13,638 nucleotides of DNA from a virus (lineage: Duplodnaviria > Heunggongvirae > Uroviricota > Caudoviricetes), in IMG/VR virus record IMGVR_UViG_2531839476_000010; one strand, 5' to 3'. The position numbers were made by a program, and so were the translations under genes. The notes beneath the pieces were generated by a model. That model was not told the origin of the DNA and made no database searches. It saw only the letters and a program-made list of their open reading frames with translations. Positions 2,736 to 13,638 of the stretch are shown piece by piece (the first letter of the stretch is position 1; the number at the start of each line of letters is the position of its first letter).

Positions 2736-3140
2736 ATGATTTCATGGATAGCGTCCACCATATTTGGTGTCCACTATTCTCTCAGGAATTTCAGGATCTG
2801 CCAGACGGTGCTGAGACGACGCTTACGGATAAATAATTACCCGGATAAGATTACTGTTACTGTGGCACTGGAAATTGGTGGGTATCCGTCACTGTTGTTG
2901 CCATATGTGGCGATTAGTCTTGACCGTACTGAAGGTGCCACGCTGGAGTTTTACGAAGCTGAGGCGAAAAAGCAGGCGAAGCAGTTTTTCATGGATGTTG
3001 CTGCCGGGTTATGTGAAGGGGATGGTCCGTTGCCGGAAAAGCGGCCCATCATTTTAGAGGCGCAGGATGTGTTGATAACCTACAGAGGAAAACTACCGGG
3101 AATAATTACTGGTTCTCTGAAGACTCCACCGCTGGCCTGA
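2736..3140 (+). CDS. Hypothetical protein; possibly a C-terminal fragment of a gene disrupted by the IS insertion
   Basis: 134-aa ORF from the track. Its first ~30 codons overlap the second IS-end-like sequence, so the native gene, if any, likely begins downstream or was truncated. No family recognised; not holin-like (no transmembrane segments). Confidence 0.3.
   Translation: MISWIASTIFGVHYSLRNFRICQTVLRRRLRINNYPDKITVTVALEIGGYPSLLLPYVAISLDRTEGATLEFYEAEAKKQAKQFFMDVAAGLCEGDGPLPEKRPIILEAQDVLITYRGKLPGIITGSLKTPPLA
2803..2826. repeat. Second IS66-end-like sequence (AGACGGTGCTGAGACGACGCTTAC), direct copy 133 bp downstream of the first
   Basis: 17 of 24 positions identical to 2670-2693 when aligned by eye, including the terminal CGCTTAC. 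Could be the true IRR or a solo-end remnant of another IS66 copy. Confidence 0.4.
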
Positions 3141-3190: not shown

Positions 3191-3724
3191 ATGAACGCAA
3201 AAATCAGATACGGCCTGTCGGCTGCCGTTCTGGCGCTGATTGCCGCAGGTGCGCCTGCGCCTGAAATCCTCGACCAGTTTCTGGATGAAAAGGAAGGTAA
3301 CCACACCACGGCATACCGTGATGGCGCGGGTATCTGGACCATCTGTCGCGGTGCCATTCTGGTGGATAGTAAACCTGTCGTCCCGGGCATGAAGTTGTCG
3401 AAGGAGAAATGCGACCAGGTTAACGCCATTGAACGTGATAAGGCGCTGGCATGGGTGGATAAAAACATCAAAGTGCCACTGACCGAACCCCAGAAAGCGG
3501 GGATCGCGTCATTCTGTCCGTACAACATTGGTCCCGGTAAATGTTTCCCGTCGACGTTTTACAGACGAATTAATGCAGGTGATCGCAGGGGAGCGTGTGA
3601 GGCGATTCGCTGGTGGATTAAGGACGGTGGCAGAGACTGCCGTATTCGCTCAAATAACTGTTACGGTCAGGTATCCCGTCGCGACCAGGAGAGTGCGCTG
3701 GCGTGCTGGGGAATTGACAGATAA
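3191..3724 (+). CDS. R: Phage endolysin, T4-lysozyme-type (GH24) with N-terminal signal-anchor-release (SAR) segment
   Basis: 177 aa. N-terminal Ala/Gly-rich weakly hydrophobic stretch (YGLSAAVLALIAAGAPAP) followed by a Glu-x8-Asp-x5-Thr catalytic arrangement (KEGNHTTAYRDGAGIWTICRG). Closely resembles the R lysozymes of 933W/21-type lambdoid phages as I remember them. Confidence 0.9.
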   Translation: MNAKIRYGLSAAVLALIAAGAPAPEILDQFLDEKEGNHTTAYRDGAGIWTICRGAILVDSKPVVPGMKLSKEKCDQVNAIERDKALAWVDKNIKVPLTEPQKAGIASFCPYNIGPGKCFPSTFYRRINAGDRRGACEAIRWWIKDGGRDCRIRSNNCYGQVSRRDQESALACWGIDR

Positions 3725-3883: not shown

Positions 3884-4021
3884 GTGTTTGATTTTAGCAA
3901 ACTGATTCGGGAGATTCGAGTGATGGCTGAAAAATTATCCACCTGGAAGTTCATCCTTATCTGGCTGGTGTTTGTGATTATGGCCTCCGGTTATTTCATC
4001 GGTCAGATACGCTGGTGGTGA
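3884..4021 (+). CDS. Small hypothetical single-pass membrane protein, translationally coupled to Rz
   Basis: Below the ORF-track length cutoff; found by reading the frame. GTG at 3884 preceded by AGGAG (3874-3878, 5-nt spacing); alternative ATG at 3923. Encodes ...MAEKLSTWKFILIWLVFVIMASGYFIGQIRWW with one hydrophobic helix. Stop TGA at 4019-4021 sits 1 nt before the Rz ATG. Confidence 0.3.
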   Translation: MFDFSKLIREIRVMAEKLSTWKFILIWLVFVIMASGYFIGQIRWW

Positions 4022-4022
4022 A

Positions 4023-4517
4023 ATGAACCGCGTACTGTGCGTGGTCATCATTGCCCTGCTGGTGGCCTGTGGTGCGCTTAGTCTGGGGCTGAATCATTAC
4101 CGTGATAACGCCATAACCTACAAAGAGCAGCGCGATAAAAAAGTCAGTGAGCTGGAGCTGGCAAATGCAACCATTACTGATATGCAGCAGCGCCAGCGTG
4201 ATGTTGCTGCACTTGATGCCAGATACTCGAGGGAATTAGCCGATGCGAGAGCTGAAAATGAAACTCTTCGCGCTGACGTTGCCGCTGGTCACCGCAGCCT
4301 GCGGATCAACGCCACCTGTCCAGGTCCCGTGCGTGAAGCCACCGGCACCGCCCGCGTGGATAATGCAACCGGCCCCCAACTGGCAGACACCGTTACACGG
4401 GATTATTTCACCCTCAGAGAGCGGCTGATGACGATGCAGAAGCAACTGGAAGGGGCACAGGACTATATCCGCACTCAGTGTACTAAGCAGGCTTTTTATT
4501 ATCCGGAGGATGTATGA
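4023..4517 (+). CDS. Rz: Rz i-spanin (inner-membrane spanin subunit)
   Basis: 164 aa; N-terminal TM helix then ...NHYRDNAITYKEQRDKK...DMQQRQRDVAALDARYSRELADARAENETLRADVAAG...RDYFTLRERLMTMQKQLEG, near-collinear with lambda Rz as I recall it. Confidence 0.92.
   Translation: MNRVLCVVIIALLVACGALSLGLNHYRDNAITYKEQRDKKVSELELANATITDMQQRQRDVAALDARYSRELADARAENETLRADVAAGHRSLRINATCPGPVREATGTARVDNATGPQLADTVTRDYFTLRERLMTMQKQLEGAQDYIRTQCTKQAFYYPEDV
4243..4428 (+). CDS. Rz1: Rz1 o-spanin (outer-membrane lipoprotein) embedded in the +1 frame of Rz
   Basis: 61 aa; lipoprotein signal with lipobox (LVTAA|C), proline-rich mature part ...CVKPPAPPAWIMQPAPNWQTPLHGIISPSE matching lambda Rz1 (CVKPPPPPAWIMQPPPDWQTPLNGIISPSE). 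Classic embedded-gene architecture. Confidence 0.88.
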   Translation: MRELKMKLFALTLPLVTAACGSTPPVQVPCVKPPAPPAWIMQPAPNWQTPLHGIISPSESG

Positions 4518-4738
4518 AGAAATTGCAGGTAACGGTAAAACCTTTTCAGGGAACAATTCCGTTCCGTGTTTTGCAACATGGCCGTGTTCTGCTTGAAGAG
4601 GTGTTCAGAGGTAAATGCACTGAATGTTATTCACGAACATATGAAGTGAATGCCACGCATGAAGAATTCACCGTTGAGTGTGTGATGAATACTGATAAAT
4701 GCCGAATGGTATCCGCTGAATTACAGCCAGTGTGTTGA
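4514..4738 (+). CDS. Hypothetical small Cys-rich protein, translationally coupled to Rz
   Basis: 74 aa; ATG overlaps the Rz stop (ATGA at 4514-4517); GGAGG 4 nt upstream. Contains CxxC (CTEC) and a further Cys pair (ECVMNTDKC); no signal peptide. AT-richer than flanking phage genes. No family recognised. Confidence 0.5.
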   Translation: MKKLQVTVKPFQGTIPFRVLQHGRVLLEEVFRGKCTECYSRTYEVNATHEEFTVECVMNTDKCRMVSAELQPVC

Positions 4739-5045
4739 GCGACCTTATTATCCATGCGCGGTATTGTCGCCGTATTCCTGCATTAACAGAGACCGCAGCC
4801 CGACAGGGAGACTCCTCTGCGAGAGTGTGCGGGGATAATCAAAAACGATACACACCGGGGTTTACCGCGTAAACGGAGCGCGGCGTTGTCCCCTCATGGT
4901 CGCTGGTCCGGTGCGATGGTGGAAGAAACCGGACGATGTGTTACCTCGCAAACTCTGTTATGTCATGTGTCTGATTTGTGATTTAAGTCGGATAATTGTC
5001 ATTGCCATTAAGCAGAGGATTGATGACCGACAGGGCTGCATTGTT

Positions 5046-5062
5046 AGAATAAGACTTATTCT
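5046..5062. promoter_or_regulatory. Perfect 8-1-8 palindrome AGAATAAG-A-CTTATTCT, ~20 bp upstream of the lipoprotein ATG; candidate operator
   Basis: Read directly. It overlaps a -10-like hexamer TAGAAT (5045-5050). A 1-nt spacer cannot form an RNA hairpin loop, so it is more consistent with a site for a dimeric DNA-binding protein. Confidence 0.3.
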
Positions 5063-5082
5063 TATCTATGCCGGGAATAAAA

Positions 5083-5409
5083 ATGAAAAGAAATCTTCCG
5101 TTAATTATTTTGTTGTCTTCTTTGGTTATGGGCTGTACGCAACATAAAACAGATATGCCTCGACAGTTGGTTAAGGCATTACCACAATATCCGGCCTATG
5201 CCGCGGCAAATTATATAAAGGGACGGGTTGATGTGAAGTTTGATATTGGTGCTGATGGTACTGTCACCCGAATTGAGTTTATCCGTTCAGAGCCGCACCA
5301 TCTGTTTGATGAGCAGGTTGTAAAGGCGATGGCAAAATGGCGATTTGAGAAGGACAAGCCGCGTAAAGGCGTGAAGAAAACATTTATCTTTAGTCCTTCA
5401 GCACCCTGA
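5083..5409 (+). CDS. Lipoprotein with TonB C-terminal-like domain (moron gene)
   Basis: Start taken at the second ATG (5083), giving signal MKRNLPLIILLSSLVMG|C with Cys+1 and Thr+2. Mature region QYPAYAAANYIKGRVDVKFDIGADGTVTRIEFIRSEP...VVKAMAKWRFE aligns by eye with E. coli TonB C-terminal domain (QYPARAQALRIEGQVKVKFDV.PDGRV...AMRRWRY). No TonB N-terminal anchor or Pro-rich spacer. AT-rich relative to the head genes. Confidence 0.7.
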   Translation: MKRNLPLIILLSSLVMGCTQHKTDMPRQLVKALPQYPAYAAANYIKGRVDVKFDIGADGTVTRIEFIRSEPHHLFDEQVVKAMAKWRFEKDKPRKGVKKTFIFSPSAP

Positions 5410-5865
5410 TTATTTTATCAGAAGTTAATTATCACTCTGTTGCTATTCAGTACATCCCTGCAGGGTAAAGTCTTGTTTCGCCGGATATGAAGATGAAATA
5501 TTGTTAGAAGACAGTAGCTACCGGTTCCTGTAACCGAACGTTCATTTCTCGTTATTTTTCATGCTGGCCGGGCGCAGGTGCTTTGCATCTGTTGCCAGCC
5601 TTCTCCTGCAGGCTTCAATAACCCATGCCGAAAAATTACCCGATCCCTTACGTTCAAGGGCAATATGGATTTGATTAATCATCTGGTTTGGGAAGCTTTA
5701 TTTTTTGATGACATTGTGTTTTTCCGTGTTCAGTGCTGCTGATTTGTATTGTCTTAAGATGTCTTTACGTTAAGTTGACACAGATCAATTAATGCATGAC
5801 TTGGACAAAATTGATTATTTGTCGTGGTTTTATGGTGTACGTGGGATGTGTGATGGTATTTATAT

Positions 5866-5886
5866 AAATGATAATTATTATCATTT
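5866..5886. repeat. Perfect 21-bp palindrome AAATGATAAT-T-ATTATCATTT; core TGATAATtATTATCA matches the 7-1-7 Fur-box pattern
   Basis: Read directly. It lies ~35 bp upstream of the cohesive-end sequence, in the cosQ-proximal AT-rich region. Function unknown. Confidence 0.4.
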
Positions 5887-5888
5887 AT

Positions 5889-6100
5889 TGGATCCTTTCC
5901 GGCGATCCGGCAGGCTACGGGGCGGCGACCTCGCGGGTTTTCGCTATTTATGAAAATTTTCCGGTTTAAGGCGTTTCCGTTCTTCTTCGTCGTAACTTAA
6001 TGTTTTTATTTAAAATACCCCCTGAAAAGAAAGGAAACGACAGGTGCTGAAAACGAACTTTTGGGCCTTTGTCGTTTCCTTTCTCTGTTTTTGGCCGTGG
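5889..6100 (+). other. cos: Lambda-type cos site: cosQ-like segment, cosN with 12-nt cohesive end at 5920-5931, cosB with three CGTTTCC-type terminase-binding repeats
   Basis: GGGCGGCGACCT at 5920-5931 followed by CGCGGGTTTTCGCTATTTATGAAAATTTTCCGG..., nearly identical to the lambda left end as I remember it. CGTTTCC at 5972-5978 and 6073-6079, inverted copy GGAAACG at 6033-6039, AT-rich stretch between (IHF-site position in lambda). Nu1 ATG follows 189 nt after the cohesive-end start. Confidence 0.85.
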
Positions 6101-6108
6101 AATGAACA

Positions 6109-6628
6109 ATGGAAGTCAACAAAAAGCAGCTGGCTGACATTTTCGGTGCGAGTATCCGTACCATTCAGAACTGGCAGGAACAGGGAATGCCCGTTCTGCG
6201 AGGCGGTGGCAAGGGTAATGAGGTGCTTTATGACTCTGCCGCCGTCATAAAATGGTATGCCGAAAGGGATGCTGAAATTGAGAACGAAAAGCTGCGCCGG
6301 GAGGTTGAAGAACTGCGGCAGGCCAGCGAGGCAGATCTCCAGCCAGGAACTATTGAGTACGAACGCCATCGACTTACGCGTGCGCAGGCCGACGCACAGG
6401 AACTGAAGAATGCCAGAGACTCCGCTGAAGTGGTGGAAACCGCATTCTGTACTTTCGTGTTGTCGCGGATCGCAGGTGAAATTGCCAGTATTCTCGACGG
6501 GCTCCCCCTGTCGGTGCAGCGGCGTTTTCCGGAACTGGAAAACCGACATGTTGATTTCCTGAAACGGGATATCATCAAAGCCATGAACAAAGCAGCCGCG
6601 CTGGATGAACTGATACCGGGGTTGCTGA

Positions 6629-6654
<26 letters not shown>
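6109..6654 (+). CDS. nu1: Terminase small subunit (gpNu1)
   Basis: 181 aa; MEVNKKQLADIFGASIRTIQNWQEQGMPVLRGGGKGNEVLYDSAAVIKWYAERD... matches lambda Nu1 along its length (winged-HTH N-terminus); overlaps the A start by 26 nt as in lambda. Confidence 0.95.
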
Positions 6655-10333
<3,679 letters not shown>

Positions 10334-10353
<20 letters not shown>

Positions 10354-11653
10354 TCTCCCGCATATTGCCAGCATGGCCTTTAATGAGCCGCTGATGCTTG
10401 AACCCGCCTATGCGCGGGTTTTCTTTTGTGCGCTTGCAGGCCAGCTTGGGATCAGCCGCCTGACGGATGCGGTGTCCGGCGACAGCCTGACTGCCCAGGA
10501 GGCACTCGCGACGCTGGCATTATCCGGTGATGATGACGGACCACGACAGGCCCGCAGTTATCAGGTCATGAACGGCATCGCCGTGCTGCCGGTGTCCGGC
10601 ACGCTGGTCAGCCGGACGCGGGCGCTGCAGCCGTACTCGGGGATGACCGGTTACAACGGCATTATCGCCCGTCTGCAACAGGCTGCCAGCGATCCGATGG
10701 TGGACGGCATTCTGCTCGATATGGACACGCCCGGCGGGATGGTGGCGGGGGCATTTGACTGCGCTGACATCATCGCCCGTGTGCGTGACATAAAACCGGT
10801 ATGGGCGCTTGCCAACGACATGAACTGCAGTGCAGGTCAGTTGCTTGCCAGTGCCGCCTCCCGGCGTCTGGTCACGCAGACCGCCCGGACAGGCTCCATC
10901 GGCGTCATGATGGCTCACAGTAATTACGGTGCTGCGCTGGAGAAACAGGGTGTGGAAATCACCCTGATTTACAGCGGCAGCCATAAGGTGGATGGCAACC
11001 CCTACAGCCATCTTCCGGATGACGTCCGGGAGACACTGCAGTCCCGGATGGACGCAACCCGCCGGATGTTTGCGCAGAAGGTGTCGGCATATACCGGCCT
11101 GTCCGTGCAGGCTGTGCTGGATACCGAGGCTGCAGTGTACAGCGGTCAGGAGGCCATTGATGCCGGACTGGCTGATGAACTTGTTAACAGCACCGATGCG
11201 ATCACCGTCATGCGTGATGCACTGGATGCACGTAAATCCCGTCTCTCAGGAGGGCGAATGACCAAAGAGACTCAATCAACAACTGTTTCAGCCACTGCTT
11301 CGCAGGCTGACGTTACTGACGTGGTGCCAGCGACGGAGGGCGAGAACGCCAGCGCGGCGCAGCCGGACGTGAACGCGCAGATCACCGCAGCGGTTGCGGC
11401 AGAAAACAGCCGCATTATGGGGATCCTCAACTGTGAGGAGGCTCACGGACGCGAAGAACAGGCACGCGTGCTGGCAGAAACCCCCGGTATGACCGTGAAA
11501 ACGGCCCGCCGCATTCTGGCCGCAGCACCACAGAGTGCACAGGCGCGCAGTGACACTGCGCTGGATCGTCTGATGCAGGGGGCACCGGCACCGCTGGCTG
11601 CAGGTAACCCGGCATCTGATGCCGTTAACGATTTGCTGAACACACCAGTGTAA
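10334..11653 (+). CDS. C: Head maturation protease / scaffold fusion protein (gpC), GTG start
   Basis: Translation from GTG at 10334 gives (M)TAELRNLPHIASMAFNEPLMLEPAYARVFFCALAGQLGIS... matching lambda gpC; 20-nt overlap with the B stop as in lambda. The ORF-track start at 10199 is an in-frame upstream extension. Confidence 0.9.
11048..11653 (+). CDS. nu3: Scaffolding protein gpNu3 (in-frame internal start within C)
   Basis: ATG at 11048 in the C frame gives MDATRRMFAQKVSAYTGLSVQAVLDTEAAVYSGQEAIDAGLADELVNSTDAITVMRDALDARKSRLSGGRMTKETQSTTVSATASQ..., the lambda Nu3 arrangement. Confidence 0.8.
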   Translation: MDATRRMFAQKVSAYTGLSVQAVLDTEAAVYSGQEAIDAGLADELVNSTDAITVMRDALDARKSRLSGGRMTKETQSTTVSATASQADVTDVVPATEGENASAAQPDVNAQITAAVAAENSRIMGILNCEEAHGREEQARVLAETPGMTVKTARRILAAAPQSAQARSDTALDRLMQGAPAPLAAGNPASDAVNDLLNTPV

Positions 11654-11662
11654 GGGATGTTT

Positions 11663-11995
11663 ATGACGAGCAAAGAAACCTTTACCCATTACCAGCCGCA
11701 GGGCAACAGTGACCCGGCTCATACCGCAACCGCGCCCGGCGGATTGAGTGCGAAAGCGCCTGCAATGACCCCGCTGATGCTGGACACCTCCAGCCGTAAG
11801 CTGGTTGCGTGGGATGGCACCACCGACGGTGCTGCCGTTGGCATTCTTGCGGTTGCTGCTGACCAGACCAGCACCACGCTGACGTTCTACAAGTCCGGCA
11901 CGTTCCGTTATGAGGATGTGCTCTGGCCGGAGGCTGCCAGCGACGAGACGAAAAAACGGACCGCGTTTGCCGGAACGGCAATCAGCATCGTTTAA
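11663..11995 (+). CDS. D: Head decoration protein gpD
   Basis: [110 protein letters not shown] matches lambda gpD. Start at the second ATG of the track ORF. Confidence 0.95.
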
Positions 11996-12015
11996 CTTTA
12001 CCCTTCATCACTAAA

Positions 12016-12037
12016 GGCCGCCTGTGCGGCTTTTTTT
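12016..12037 (+). terminator. GC hairpin (GCCGC-CTGT-GCGGC) followed by a T7 run between D and E; terminator-like or attenuator-like
   Basis: Read directly: AAAGGCCGCCTGTGCGGCTTTTTTT, flanked by A-run upstream and T-run downstream (potentially bidirectional). Confidence 0.45.
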
Positions 12038-12050
12038 ACGGGATTTTTTT

Positions 12051-13076
12051 ATGTCGATGTACACAACCGCCCAACTGCTGGCGGCAAATGAGCAGAAATT
12101 TAAGTTTGATCCGCTGTTTCTGCGTCTCTTTTTCCGTGAGAGCTATCCCTTCACCACGGAGAAAGTCTATCTCTCACAAATTCCGGGACTGGTAAACATG
12201 GCGCTGTACGTTTCGCCGATTGTTTCCGGTGAGGTTATCCGTTCCCGTGGCGGCTCCACCTCTGAATTTACGCCGGGATATGTCAAGCCGAAGCATGAAG
12301 TGAATCCGCAGATGACCCTGCGTCGCCTGCCGGATGAAGATCCGCAGAATCTGGCGGACCCGGCTTACCGCCGCCGTCGCATCATCATGCAGAACATGCG
12401 TGACGAAGAGCTGGCCATTGCTCAGGTCGAAGAGATGCAGGCAGTTTCTGCCGTGCTTAAGGGCAAATACACCATGACCGGTGAAGCCTTCGATCCGGTT
12501 GAGGTGGATATGGGCCGCAGTGAGGAGAATAACATCACGCAGTCCGGCGGCACGGAGTGGAGCAAGCGTGACAAGTCCACGTATGACCCGACCGACGATA
12601 TCGAAGCCTACGCGCTGAACGCCAGCGGTGTGGTGAATATCATCGTGTTCGATCCGAAAGGCTGGGCGCTGTTCCGTTCCTTCAAAGCCGTCAAGGAGAA
12701 GCTGGATACCCGTCGTGGCTCTAATTCCGAGCTGGAGACAGCGGTGAAAGACCTAGGTAAAGCGGTGTCCTATAAGGGGATGTATGGCGATGTGGCCATC
12801 GTCGTGTATTCCGGACAGTACGTGGAAAACGGCGTCAAAAAGAACTTCCTGCCGGACAACACGATGGTGCTGGGGAACACTCAGGCACGCGGTCTGCGCA
12901 CCTATGGCTGCATTCAGGATGCGGACGCACAGCGCGAAGGCATTAACGCCTCTGCCCGTTACCCGAAAAACTGGGTGACCACCGGCGATCCGGCGCGTGA
13001 GTTCACCATGATTCAGTCAGCACCGCTGATGCTGCTGGCTGACCCTGATGAGTTCGTGTCCGTACAACTGGCGTAA
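12051..13076 (+). CDS. E: Major capsid protein gpE
   Basis: 341 aa from ATG 12051: MSMYTTAQLLAANEQKFKFDPLFLRLFFRESYPFTTEKVYLSQIPGLVNMALYVSPIVSGEVIRSRGG... matches lambda gpE; the track ORF start at 12024 is an upstream in-frame extension. Confidence 0.95.
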   Translation: MSMYTTAQLLAANEQKFKFDPLFLRLFFRESYPFTTEKVYLSQIPGLVNMALYVSPIVSGEVIRSRGGSTSEFTPGYVKPKHEVNPQMTLRRLPDEDPQNLADPAYRRRRIIMQNMRDEELAIAQVEEMQAVSAVLKGKYTMTGEAFDPVEVDMGRSEENNITQSGGTEWSKRDKSTYDPTDDIEAYALNASGVVNIIVFDPKGWALFRSFKAVKEKLDTRRGSNSELETAVKDLGKAVSYKGMYGDVAIVVYSGQYVENGVKKNFLPDNTMVLGNTQARGLRTYGCIQDADAQREGINASARYPKNWVTTGDPAREFTMIQSAPLMLLADPDEFVSVQLA

Positions 13077-13117
13077 TCATGGCCCTTCGGGGCCATTGTT
13101 TCTCTGTGGAGGAGTCC

Positions 13118-13516
13118 ATGACGAAAGATGAACTGATTGCCCGTCTCCGCTCGCTGGGTGAACAACTGAACCGTGATGTCAGCCTGACGGGGACGAAAGA
13201 AGAACTGGCGCTCCGTGTGGCAGAGCTGGAAGAGGAGCTTGATGACACGGATGAAACTGCCGGTCAGGACACCCCTCTCAGCCGGGAAAATGTGCTGACC
13301 GGACATGAAAATGAGGTGGGATCAGCGCAGCCGGATACCGTGATTCTGGATACGTCTGAACTGGTCACGGTCGTGGCACTGGTGAAGCTGCATACTGATG
13401 CACTTCACGCCACGCGGGATGAACCTGTGGCATTTGTGCTGCCGGGAACGGCGTTTCGTGTCTCTGCCGGTGTGGCAGCCGAAATGACAGAGCGCGGCCT
13501 GGCCAGAATGCAATAA
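13118..13516 (+). CDS. FI: DNA packaging accessory protein gpFI
   Basis: 132 aa from ATG 13118: MTKDELIARLRSLGEQLNRDVSLTGTKEELALRVAELEEELDDTDETAGQDTPLSRENVLTGHENEVGSAQPDTVILDTSELVTVVALVKLHTDALHATRDEPVAFVLPGTAFRVSAGVAAEMTERGLARMQ matches lambda gpFI. Confidence 0.92.
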   Translation: MTKDELIARLRSLGEQLNRDVSLTGTKEELALRVAELEEELDDTDETAGQDTPLSRENVLTGHENEVGSAQPDTVILDTSELVTVVALVKLHTDALHATRDEPVAFVLPGTAFRVSAGVAAEMTERGLARMQ

Positions 13517-13527
13517 CGGGAGGCGCT

Positions 13528-13638
13528 GTGGCTGATTTCGATAACCTGTTCGATGCTGCCATTGCCCGCGCCGATGAAACGATACGCGGGTACATGGGAA
13601 CGTCAGCCACCATTACATCCGGTGAGCAGTCAGGTGCG
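13528..13638 (+). CDS. FII: Head-tail connector gpFII, 5' partial (continues beyond window), GTG start
   Basis: GTG at 13528 gives (M)ADFDNLFDAAIARADETIRGYMGTSATITSGEQSGA..., matching the lambda gpFII N-terminus; truncated by the window end. Confidence 0.8.
   Translation, partial: MADFDNLFDAAIARADETIRGYMGTSATITSGEQSGA

Follow-up and report, generated by a model that had tools for sequence, protein, structure and literature searches.

Contents and probable origin of the AT-rich region between the lysis genes and cos of a lambda-group prophage

Layout and sources of the right-end region

The DNA analysed here, called the window, is a stretch of 13,638 nucleotides (nt) from a virus of the Caudoviricetes (IMG/VR record IMGVR_UViG_2531839476_000010), and the region studied is the AT-rich, gene-poor part at positions 4739–5919, between the lysis genes and the cohesive-end site (cos). 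The window is filled by the late region of a lambda-group prophage, in which an IS66-family element, the lysis genes, the region, cos and the genes Nu1, A, W, B and C follow one another. From left to right the region holds a conserved GC-rich core (4754–4933, plus strand, 58.3% G+C), a cassette of 596 base pairs (bp) encoding a lipoprotein with a TonB C-terminal domain (4936–5531, plus strand, 40.8% G+C), and a stretch with a DUF3950 gene and a Fur-box-like palindrome that leads up to cos (5532–5919). All parts are of known kinds, namely an accessory cassette, a TonB_C lipoprotein, DUF3950, a Fur site and a lambda cos, and only the core, a conserved element of 180 nt, might be new. As a whole the region is ordinary and known, being about 99% identical to annotated public genomes, since all of its parts occur in many sequenced E. 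coli prophages. It is read here, with a probability of roughly 80%, as the ordinary accessory region at the right end of a lambda-group prophage, built by recombination from three lineages.

The evidence for this reading comes from a comparison of identities along the window. DNA to the left of about 4933 was 96.7% identical to the Stx2a phage Stx2_EH2201, and 4500–4933 was 98.8% identical to Stx2 phages. Positions 4754–5965 showed 98.6–99% identity to PP5 of the enteropathogenic E. coli (EPEC) strain E2348/69 (NC_011601, 1295225–1296432) and to several further E. coli prophages. Between cosN (5920) and the window's end, the sequence is that of phage lambda, with 25 differences in 7719 nt (99.7% identity). 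The sources would be three: Stx2-phage-like DNA left of about 4933, DNA like that of E2348/69 PP5 over 4754–5919, and lambda itself from cosN rightwards. Identity to lambda was about 75–87% left of cosN (87% in 5890–5919) and 99.7% over 5920–13638, and because it jumps exactly at cosN, cos was taken to be a recombination joint with E2348/69-type DNA on its left and lambda on its right. A prophage of E. coli Z1323CEC0019 was 98% identical over window positions 4754–9118. The full mosaic of 4500–6120 was found at high identity in none of the complete E. coli genomes; the order of an open reading frame (ORF) of 74 amino acids (aa), the core, the TonB-domain gene and the DUF3950 gene recurred in three further IMG/VR contigs (L023, L054 and L122) at 91–92% identity. 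An initial annotation of this DNA, read from the letters alone, had named alignment to annotated prophages as an outcome that would speak against a compositional island, and such alignment was found: 4754–5965 was about 99% and 4500–4933 was 98.8% identical to annotated prophage or phage DNA.

The right end of lambda (Rz, bor, lambdap78/79, cosQ, cosN; NC_001416, 46.4–48.5 kb) resembles the region in late-operon position and orientation and in its drop in G+C (40%), and carries the left half of the core at 46885–46986. Its DUF3950 ORF, the conserved stretch upstream of this ORF, its Fur-box palindrome, cosQ and cosN are all homologous to those of the window, the shared part being 69–87% identical. 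It differs in carrying bor and a DUF1398 gene in place of the 74-aa ORF and the TonB-domain cassette, in lacking the right half of the core, and in having a full-length DUF3950 ORF (64 aa) and a canonical cosQ. The prophages PP5 of E2348/69 and that of Z1323CEC0019 share with the window the same core, the proteins WP_000828067.1 and WP_001339565.1 and the palindrome, and in Z1323CEC0019 the identity goes on to 6120 and beyond. Unlike the window, both have the canonical cosQ GGGTCCT and, left of the core, a minus-strand hypothetical gene where the window has the 74-aa ORF; the terminase module of E2348/69 also differs from that of the window.

In lambda, Q-modified RNA polymerase transcribes the late operon from the lysis genes across cos into Nu1 and A. 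The whole plus strand of the region would likewise be read through by Q-modified RNA polymerase in lytic growth, as part of the late operon. Lambda-group genomes normally have an AT-rich, ORF-poor stretch beside cos, and public prophage sequences represent it in full. The present map shows the contents of 'empty' stretches that annotation pipelines leave blank, even in the reference record of lambda, and draws attention to an element at the boundary between lysis and packaging genes that is very widespread and conserved independently of the reading frame.

The conserved core at the lysis/packaging boundary

The core has sharp edges on both sides, its sequence being kept while both flanks change. 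It was present in 4141 of 5426 complete E. coli genomes (about 76%), with a median of 2 and up to 11 copies, and in 398 phage records, among them those of phage 434 and the 933W-type Stx2 phages, and a feature was almost never annotated over it. A pattern scan of IMG/VR revealed 128 copies in 71 distinct versions, with at least eight different right flanks and at least four left flanks. The place of the core was constant, downstream of Rz or bor and upstream of a packaging module of whatever type, in the same orientation and within the late operon. Lambda and DLP12 keep only its left half. A search for distant copies in species-representative genomes yielded Escherichia only, plus three probable contaminant contigs, and because of this confinement no deep phylogenetic covariation was gathered. 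The core would most likely act as a nucleotide sequence, either by folding within the late mRNA or by offering a shared patch of homology for module exchange. It is a candidate cis-acting RNA of the late transcript, and a neutral recombination linker is about equally likely.

It is a serious possibility, if short of an even chance, that the core is a functionless neutral relic, for example of an old gene, which persists as shared homology, or a 'linker', for lambdoid recombination. Such a relic explains the sharp borders, at which many unrelated left and right flanks meet the same end points, and both parental lineages of the window overlap exactly on the core, the Stx2-type DNA extending to 4933 and the E2348/69-type DNA beginning at 4754. 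Between lineages the core was 76–83% identical, a range close to the 70–85% seen for neighbouring genes such as Rz, and the narrow host range and the absence of the right half from lambda point the same way. Rates within the 180 nt were, however, very uneven, blocks of 26–43 nt being invariant and the segment between them being replaced, and strand-asymmetric, G.U-compatible changes together with a hairpin architecture that survives sequence turnover are not expected of a neutral relic.

An RNA fold was investigated with RNAalifold in an alignment of 32 diverse copies of the core. The consensus reached −31.4 kcal/mol on the plus strand and about −14 on the minus strand, and a column-shuffle control gave z = −3.16 for the plus strand versus −0.32 for the minus strand, which favours an RNA. 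In the consensus structure, 97.9% of the cells were paired and the covariation score was 0.120, each value being reached by none of 500 shuffles, which likewise argues for a fold. Against it count the double-sided changes, which were seen in four pairs only, a number that 10 of the 500 shuffles also reached, and the fact that the consensus structure was derived from the same sequences as were used in its test.

The proposed 5′ domain of the core (4761–4851, plus strand) covers most of block A, a near-invariant block at 4817–4859, and is composed of the helices P1 (4761–4767/4845–4851), P2 (4773–4779/4831–4837), P3 (4781–4787/4825–4829), P4 (4794–4798/4817–4821) and P5 (4799–4801/4806–4808), with 98–100% of the cells paired in each. 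Variation in the long-range stems was almost entirely from Watson–Crick to G.U pairs on the plus strand, about 11 transitions being preserved and about 2 broken, and variation of this type fits the plus strand only. The domain is followed by a variable hairpin (4857–4893, plus strand), which in the window has a GGGG/CCCC clamp and the inner stem CCGCG (4865–4869)/CGCGG (4879–4883). This inner stem is exchanged for CUGUG/CGCAG in the 434 type, UCUCA/UGGGA in 933W, CCGCGC/GCGCGG in L075 and CGCG(U)/(A)CGCG in L043. The clamp plus hairpin was the minimum-free-energy fold in the window, 434, L041, 933W and L075 types, each folded independently (L043 was outside this set), although its thermodynamic z was weak (mean −0.7). 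A segment that keeps this architecture with at least four stem sequences, and is flanked by two near-invariant blocks, speaks for an RNA. The terminal hairpin (4907–4933, plus strand) pairs TCCGGT with ACCGGA around a conserved 15-nt loop, GCGATGGTGGAAGAA. Five of the 32 aligned sequences showed a compensatory change from G-C to U-A in this stem (TCCTG/CAGGA), a further point for the fold, and six showed a G.U pair. The 3′ base of the terminal hairpin is also the module boundary, and after CCGGA unrelated sequence follows in different phages.

If functional, positions 4754–4933 would form an undescribed structured RNA, acting in cis within the late mRNA or existing as a small RNA (sRNA) of its own, and both versions are compatible with an accessory region of mosaic origin. 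In the cis version, it would supply a signal between the lysis and packaging modules for processing, for stability or for the coupling of translation. A functional RNA is proposed only tentatively, as a possibility on the doubtful side. Apart from the folding data, it is favoured by nucleotide conservation independent of the reading frame and by the constant orientation and late-operon place. Single sequences, however, folded no more stably than their shuffles, the differences being not significant (z = −0.62 for the window copy and −0.1 to −2.5 for other copies), and since the core is found in Escherichia phages only, its conservation could reflect recent spread and recombination. The scans gave it neither a terminator-like 3′ end nor a promoter, counts of consensus promoters and terminators in the region being at or below the shuffle expectation. 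Lambda and DLP12, with the left half only, indicate that the whole element is dispensable for lambda.

The initial annotation had suggested that the ORF-free stretches could hold a small RNA, but no known one was found there. The covariance models of Rfam 15 gave no match at E ≤ 1 in 4000–6700 and none at the gathering score in the whole window, and a search for tRNA and tmRNA genes found none. The sRNAs AgvB, AsxR and PasA–D of enterohaemorrhagic E. coli and EPEC resemble the core in being short, conserved and non-coding, at fixed positions in the late region and often in several copies. They lie, however, upstream of the lysis genes at the pR′ moron site, measure 51–240 nt, end in Rho-independent terminators and have Rfam models or published coordinates, whereas the core lies downstream of Rz or bor, lacks a terminator and an Rfam match and coincides with no published coordinate. 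The coordinates of PasA–D in E2348/69 do not overlap the core. Data from ligation-and-sequencing analysis of RNA interactions (RIL-seq) in E2348/69 showed no sRNA within 1295100–1296099 among the entries listed, and none of the EcOnc entries from Hfq crosslinking and cDNA analysis in strain Sakai lies at ECs1217–1219; the homologous sites are thus without an sRNA among the listed entries of both data sets, which counts against the RNA. Published RIL-seq data for E2348/69 also contain chimeras of MgrR with a minus-strand intergenic transcript just left of the PP5 core (NC_011601, 1294679–1295039), which overlaps a small hypothetical gene that is absent from the window.

Were the core a functional RNA, it would be an Escherichia-phage-specific RNA at the lysis/packaging boundary, carried by about three-quarters of E. 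coli genomes in up to 11 copies, and overlooked because annotators ignore the core or call spurious ORFs over it (ECs1218, 'Rz-like spanin'). The terminal hairpin would then mark the exchange point of accessory cassettes such as that of the TonB-domain lipoprotein.

A protein-coding or recently frameshifted gene at 4732–4985, belonging to the ECs1218/phrog_6954 family (67–81 aa) that is annotated in 933W-type Stx2 phages, is an improbable explanation of the core. The ORF at 4732–4872 matches positions 4–39 of the PHROG profile phrog_6954 (81 aa) and the ORF at 4896–5147 matches positions 53–80, one base out of frame; an intact ORF of 81 aa is found in VT2phi_272, ECs_1218 is present in Sakai Sp5, and two 933W-type copies carry an in-frame deletion of 9 nt. 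A coding core was nevertheless rejected, as the near-invariant blocks occurred in all three relative frames among 79 distinct copies, and for the same reason the constraint is placed on nucleotides and not on protein. Block B could be scored in 65 of the 79 copies, the two blocks standing in relative frame 2 in 56, frame 1 in 5 and frame 0 in 4. ORFs through block A ranged from 5 to 110 aa with inconsistent starts, half of them ended before block B, and a single ORF covered both blocks in 3 of the 79 copies. Changes between lineages were mostly non-synonymous in the phrog_6954 frame, neither Pfam nor NCBIfam has a family for it, and the PHROG label 'Rz-like spanin' is unsupported. This label is given both to phrog_6954 (4732–4985) and to phrog_1267, which matches 5083–5406; behind it stand the non-coding core in the first case and the TonB_C lipoprotein in the second, and it has spread into phage annotations such as that of VT2phi_272.

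Some further observations were made on the core. It opens with a mini-ORF of 10 codons, MRGIVAVFLH* (4754–4786), the ATG and TAA of which are kept in most copies; copies of the 434 and 933W types begin with CTG or GTG instead, and the 933W frame ends after two codons. Chi-like (GATGGTGG) and IHF-like (integration host factor) motifs seen by eye in the core blocks were discarded, being neither conserved across the variants nor in agreement with the consensus. The invariant block of the core was also encountered in assemblies that bear the labels Candidatus Nanosynbacter, Thiomicrorhabdus (a 468-bp contig) and unclassified Proteobacteria (a metagenome-assembled genome), the contigs being L135, L138 and L140. 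L135 also carries a canonical lambda-type cosQ–cosN, and contamination of these assemblies with E. coli phage DNA is the likeliest origin of all three.

The lipoprotein cassette and the lambda-type right end

The TonB-lipoprotein cassette (4936–5531) is missing in the IMG/VR contig L021, which is collinear with window positions 4007–4935 and 5532–5694 and lacks the 596 bp between them, the two matches overlapping by 9 nt. The joints carry the near-repeats AACCGGACG (4927–4935) and AACCGAACG (5532–5540), the left one sharing bases with the 3′ arm of the core's terminal hairpin, and no inverted repeats of transposition type longer than 5 bp were found at the cassette ends. In other phages the same slot holds bor, DUF1398, KilA-N or HNH genes, in agreement with the initial annotation, which had described this place as an insertion point for morons. 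The cassette would form the second step of the late transcript, after the core, as an insertion/deletion unit that encodes a lipoprotein of a TonB C-terminal domain.

The lipoprotein gene (5083–5409, plus strand) encodes 108 aa, its best start at 5083 being that used in RefSeq, and the product consists of a signal peptide followed by the TonB C-terminal domain. The signal peptide ends in a lipobox, LVMG|C, read directly from the translation as MKRNLPLIILLSSLVMG|C with the invariant cysteine present. The domain was recognized by Pfam TonB_C (PF03544; E = 2.4e-15, 57.2 bits versus a cut-off of 24.6) and by TIGR01352 (57.1 versus 27.1), and residues 26–104 aligned with solved E. coli TonB C-terminal domains at E = 1e-16. 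At the homologous place, relatives carry the RefSeq 'TonB family protein' WP_000828067.1. The same residues align with positions 153–233 of E. coli TonB, including the region of the PQYP motif and the final strand. Unlike TonB, the protein has no N-terminal transmembrane anchor and no proline-rich spacer, and has a lipoprotein signal peptide instead. Against the NCBIfam TonB equivalogs it reached at best 74 bits versus cut-offs of 265–448, and only over profile positions 152–240. Because anchor and spacer are absent and the scores are far below the equivalog cut-offs, the protein cannot serve to transduce energy from ExbBD. An AlphaFold model made without an alignment had a mean predicted local distance difference test (pLDDT) value of 55. 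Outer-membrane transporters have a TonB box, to which the C-terminal domain of TonB binds. As a periplasmic lipoprotein, the cassette product might act as a decoy on TonB boxes and interfere with TonB-dependent uptake of competing phages or colicins, which would make it a plausible candidate for a superinfection-exclusion or colicin-protection factor. A literature search on phage TonB-like lipoproteins found nothing relevant.

Upstream of the gene lies a candidate promoter (5023–5062, plus strand) with an extended −10 site at 5023–5050 (ATGACC, 16 nt, TG-n-TAGAAT). Its −10 is overlapped by a perfect palindrome, AGAATAAG-A-CTTATTCT (5046–5062), which could be an operator or a hairpin of the 5′ leader, and promoter and palindrome are kept in the copies of E2348/69, JLK-2012 and Z1323CEC0019. 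On the opposite strand, a near-consensus sigma-70 promoter was noticed inside the TonB-domain gene (5237–5210, minus strand; TTCACA, 16 nt, TATAAT; 11 of 12 positions), which could be due to chance in AT-rich DNA.

The cos-proximal stretch of 5532–5919 contains a DUF3950 ORF of the YlcI/YnfO type (5542–5682, minus strand, 46 aa), which matched Pfam DUF3950 over its full length (1–30 of 30; E = 8e-19, 67.7 bits versus 25); relatives carry the 46-aa DUF3950 protein WP_001339565.1. The stretch from this gene to cosN is common to lambda, 434, DLP12 (ylcI) and Qin (ynfO) in the alignment, and intact DUF3950 ORFs of 64 aa are present in 434 and lambda. Compared with lambda, 434, DLP12 and Qin, the window lineage and E2348/69 carry a deletion of 28 bp between 5696 and 5697. 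The ancestral start is left as a remnant (5679–5714, minus strand), in which the ATG at 5714–5712 opens a frame of 11 codons that ends at a TGA overlapping the ATG of the 46-aa ORF (ATGA). Due to the deletion, the ancestral ATG is out of frame and the basic N-terminal arm is lost. The score for the NCBIfam model YlcI_YnfO_N (NF041551) was 20 bits versus a cut-off of 30. The gene, on the opposite strand to the late operon, belongs to the ancestral lambda right end and has lost its N-terminal arm in this lineage. The reference record of lambda (NC_001416) leaves its intact 64-aa DUF3950 ORF (complement of 48109–48303) unannotated, while 434 and K-12 annotate the homologues. The non-coding stretch upstream of the gene (5721–5860) was 73–79% identical in lambda, 434, DLP12 and Qin and is presumed to be its promoter or 5′ leader; no consensus sigma-70 site was found in it. 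By impression, DUF3950 may resemble a ribbon-helix-helix protein. A sequence search for solved relatives found none, its weak Pfam matches included neither ribbon-helix-helix nor any other DNA-binding family, and nothing relevant to its function was found in the literature.

Between this stretch and cosQ lies a perfect 12+1+12 palindrome resembling a Fur box, ATAAATGATAAT-T-ATTATCATTTAT (5864–5888), found by an inverted-repeat search. The 19-bp Fur consensus GATAATGATAATCATTATC was matched at 15 of 19 positions at 5864 and at 14 of 19 at the overlapping site at 5870; no other site in the window, on either strand, scored as well, and no match with three or fewer mismatches occurred. The palindrome is homologous to palindromes at the same position in lambda (16/19), 434, DLP12 and Qin. 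For the Qin palindrome, which lies 233 bp upstream of nohA, selection in vivo and a shift by Fur in vitro have been reported, and the DLP12 palindrome (nohB) belongs to the strongest of the Fur clusters predicted for K-12 (PMC2189734). These nohA (Qin) and nohB/nohD (DLP12) sites of Chen et al. 2007 (PMC2189734) lie at the same distance from cosN, about 230 bp before a Nu1-type start, and the nohA and nohB sites share the core TGATAAT-N-ATTATCA with the window palindrome; the latter differs in its central T in place of C, in longer perfect arms (12+1+12) and in matching 15 and not 16 of 19 positions. As a site, the Fur site is already known. The palindrome would be an operator within the region, homologous to the K-12 Fur site upstream of nohA. 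It links this experimentally known, unexplained site to a conserved position beside cosQ across the lambda group, and raises the question whether iron status affects expression of the packaging genes or of the DUF3950 gene. An operator and degraded gene remnants had been among the contents that the initial annotation proposed for the ORF-free stretches, and both have counterparts here, in a palindrome homologous to the gel-shifted nohA site and in the frameshifted N-terminus of the DUF3950 gene.

The cos elements cosQ, cosN and cosB would come last in order, as the sites at which terminase ends and begins packaging. In the window, cosQ (5890–5896, plus strand), aligned to the cosQ annotated in phage 434, reads GGATCCT in place of the canonical GGGTCCT. 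The canonical sequence was present in all 38 related loci with this cos and the variant of the window in none, and the Feiss laboratory reports that cosQ is essentially invariant in nature (PMC4669245). The change of G to A is private to the window and may impair termination of packaging. The 12-nt cohesive end GGGCGGCGACCT of cosN (5920–5931, plus strand) and the CG contexts of the flanking nicks are identical to lambda. The lambda-type cosB (5932–6108, plus strand, 42.9% G+C) comprises R3, the IHF site I1 and R2/R1, the last two forming an inverted repeat (6028–6053/6059–6084). With subsite roles taken from PMC4669245, none of its eight differences from lambda (bp 1–190) affects the critical R3 positions bp 56, 58 and 59. 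Differences in the lambda part of the window cluster in cosB, with 8 in 190 bp versus 17 in the 7.5 kb that follow. The right-hand limit of the region is formed by Nu1, the small terminase subunit (6109–6654, plus strand; Pfam Phage_Nu1, E = 2.5e-100), which has one substitution relative to nu1 of lambda.

Base composition and state of the prophage

The AT-rich shift noted in the initial annotation was borne out by sliding-window G+C values, the composition being far from uniform: 4739–5919 has 43.4% G+C versus 54.1% for the whole window, and is among the lowest 3.2% of all windows of 1181 nt. In windows of 300 nt, values were 40–44% inside the region and 55.5 ± 4.1% outside it (minimum 46%). 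The limits drawn for this trough were displaced, since 4739–4950 is GC-rich (57%) and the lowest 1181-nt window starts at 4945 (to 6125; 40.8%), spanning cosB to the start of Nu1 and including cosB as part of the trough. In lambda, the segment from bor to the right end has 40.0% G+C versus 56.5% for its first 8 kb (head genes), and as the contrast recurs at the same place in lambda, low G+C is a constant trait of this segment in lambda-group genomes and does not mark one recent import.

Gene content differed from first expectation in several respects. The lipoprotein ORF, thought to be the only convincing one, is real, but a second RefSeq-annotated gene, DUF3950, is present on the minus strand at 5542–5682. 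Two segments had been described as lacking any ORF of at least 60 aa. In 5410–5865 the longest is indeed 54 aa, and 4739–5040 contains none, but an 83-aa ORF (4896–5147), which extends into the TonB-like gene and is without credible family support, overlaps the 3′ end of the latter segment. The last 150 bp or so before cos are lambda-like as described, 5770–5919 having 73.5% identity to lambda with gaps counted (77.6% without), and homology to lambda reaches back to 5608 (lambda 48169–48502, 69%). A single horizontally acquired unit was not found; only the cassette of about 600 bp qualifies, the cos-proximal 390 bp being ancestral to the lambda group and equally AT-rich in lambda itself. The view that the whole 1.2 kb is one foreign island, recently acquired by horizontal transfer, is very unlikely in spite of its low G+C and accessory lipoprotein gene and is ruled out by the block map, as insertion/deletion behaviour is confined to 4936–5531, 4754–4933 is GC-rich and common to hundreds of phages, 5532–5919 has homologues, equally AT-rich, in the right ends of lambda, 434, DLP12 and Qin, and the trough runs on into cosB, which is lambda DNA.

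Morons, a concept of Juhala et al. 2000 as cited in PMC4104026, resemble the lipoprotein cassette in being present or absent between collinear phages, in being AT-rich and in lying downstream of the lysis genes, lambda bor being an example. Bor is an envelope lipoprotein, as is the cassette product; bor is antisense to the late operon, whereas the cassette gene is on the same strand as the late operon.

Several points weigh against the account of the region as given above. The cassette, lacking a terminator and a convincing promoter of its own and having a near-silent homologue, is not a textbook moron. Its candidate promoter was no better than chance, three sites being found in the region versus 3.5 ± 1.8 expected. 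No terminator-like site was detected after 5409 on either strand, nor any between the convergent genes, and folds of 5400–5550 gave z values of +0.5 and +1.0. The identical gene E2348C_1253 of E2348/69 was nearly silent in RNA sequencing of EPEC, with a base mean of about 3 reads (PMC8550237); as indirect evidence, this gives no sign of expression in the lysogen, a trait of morons. The 596-bp event may have been either an insertion in the window or a deletion in L021. The decoy function, the most likely role of the lipoprotein, and binding of the window palindrome by Fur are both suggested by analogy with known systems. Finally, three of the four 1-bp differences described below for genes A, W and B lie in homopolymer runs (T5>T4, A7>A6, T3>T2), and because of this they may be sequencing errors and not decay.

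These 1-bp insertions or deletions relative to lambda were found at 8279 and 8346 (gene A), 8743 (W) and 9103 (B). They split terminase A (553 aa versus 641) and fuse W with the start of the portal gene B. To the left of the region, the IS66-family element (48–2663), with three ORFs encoding a helix-turn-helix protein, TnpB_IS66 and a DDE transposase, lies directly upstream of the lysis genes. It occupies the place of the holin gene of the Stx2-phage relative: homology to Stx2 phages resumes at 2827, inside a DUF1327 ORF (2736–3140), and the holin gene of the relative is absent between IS66 and the endolysin gene. The insertion of IS66, the differences in A, W and B and the change in cosQ together suggest a decaying prophage, and this copy is probably defective and no longer a working phage.

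The lysis genes retained are those of the endolysin (3191–3724) and of Rz and Rz1 (4023–4517 and 4243–4428). They are followed, at the left flank of the region, by the cysteine-rich ORF of 74 aa taken from the ORF list (4514–4738, plus strand), the ATG of which overlaps the stop codon of Rz (ATGA) and which is translationally coupled to Rz. The ORF matched phrog_2571 at E = 1e-28, and since only the middle of the profile was covered (positions 100–172 of 291), it may correspond to a piece of a larger protein family. An identical ORF is annotated as a 'hypothetical protein' in the Stx2a phage Stx2_EH2201. Its translation contains a cluster of cysteines (CTEC...C...C...C).

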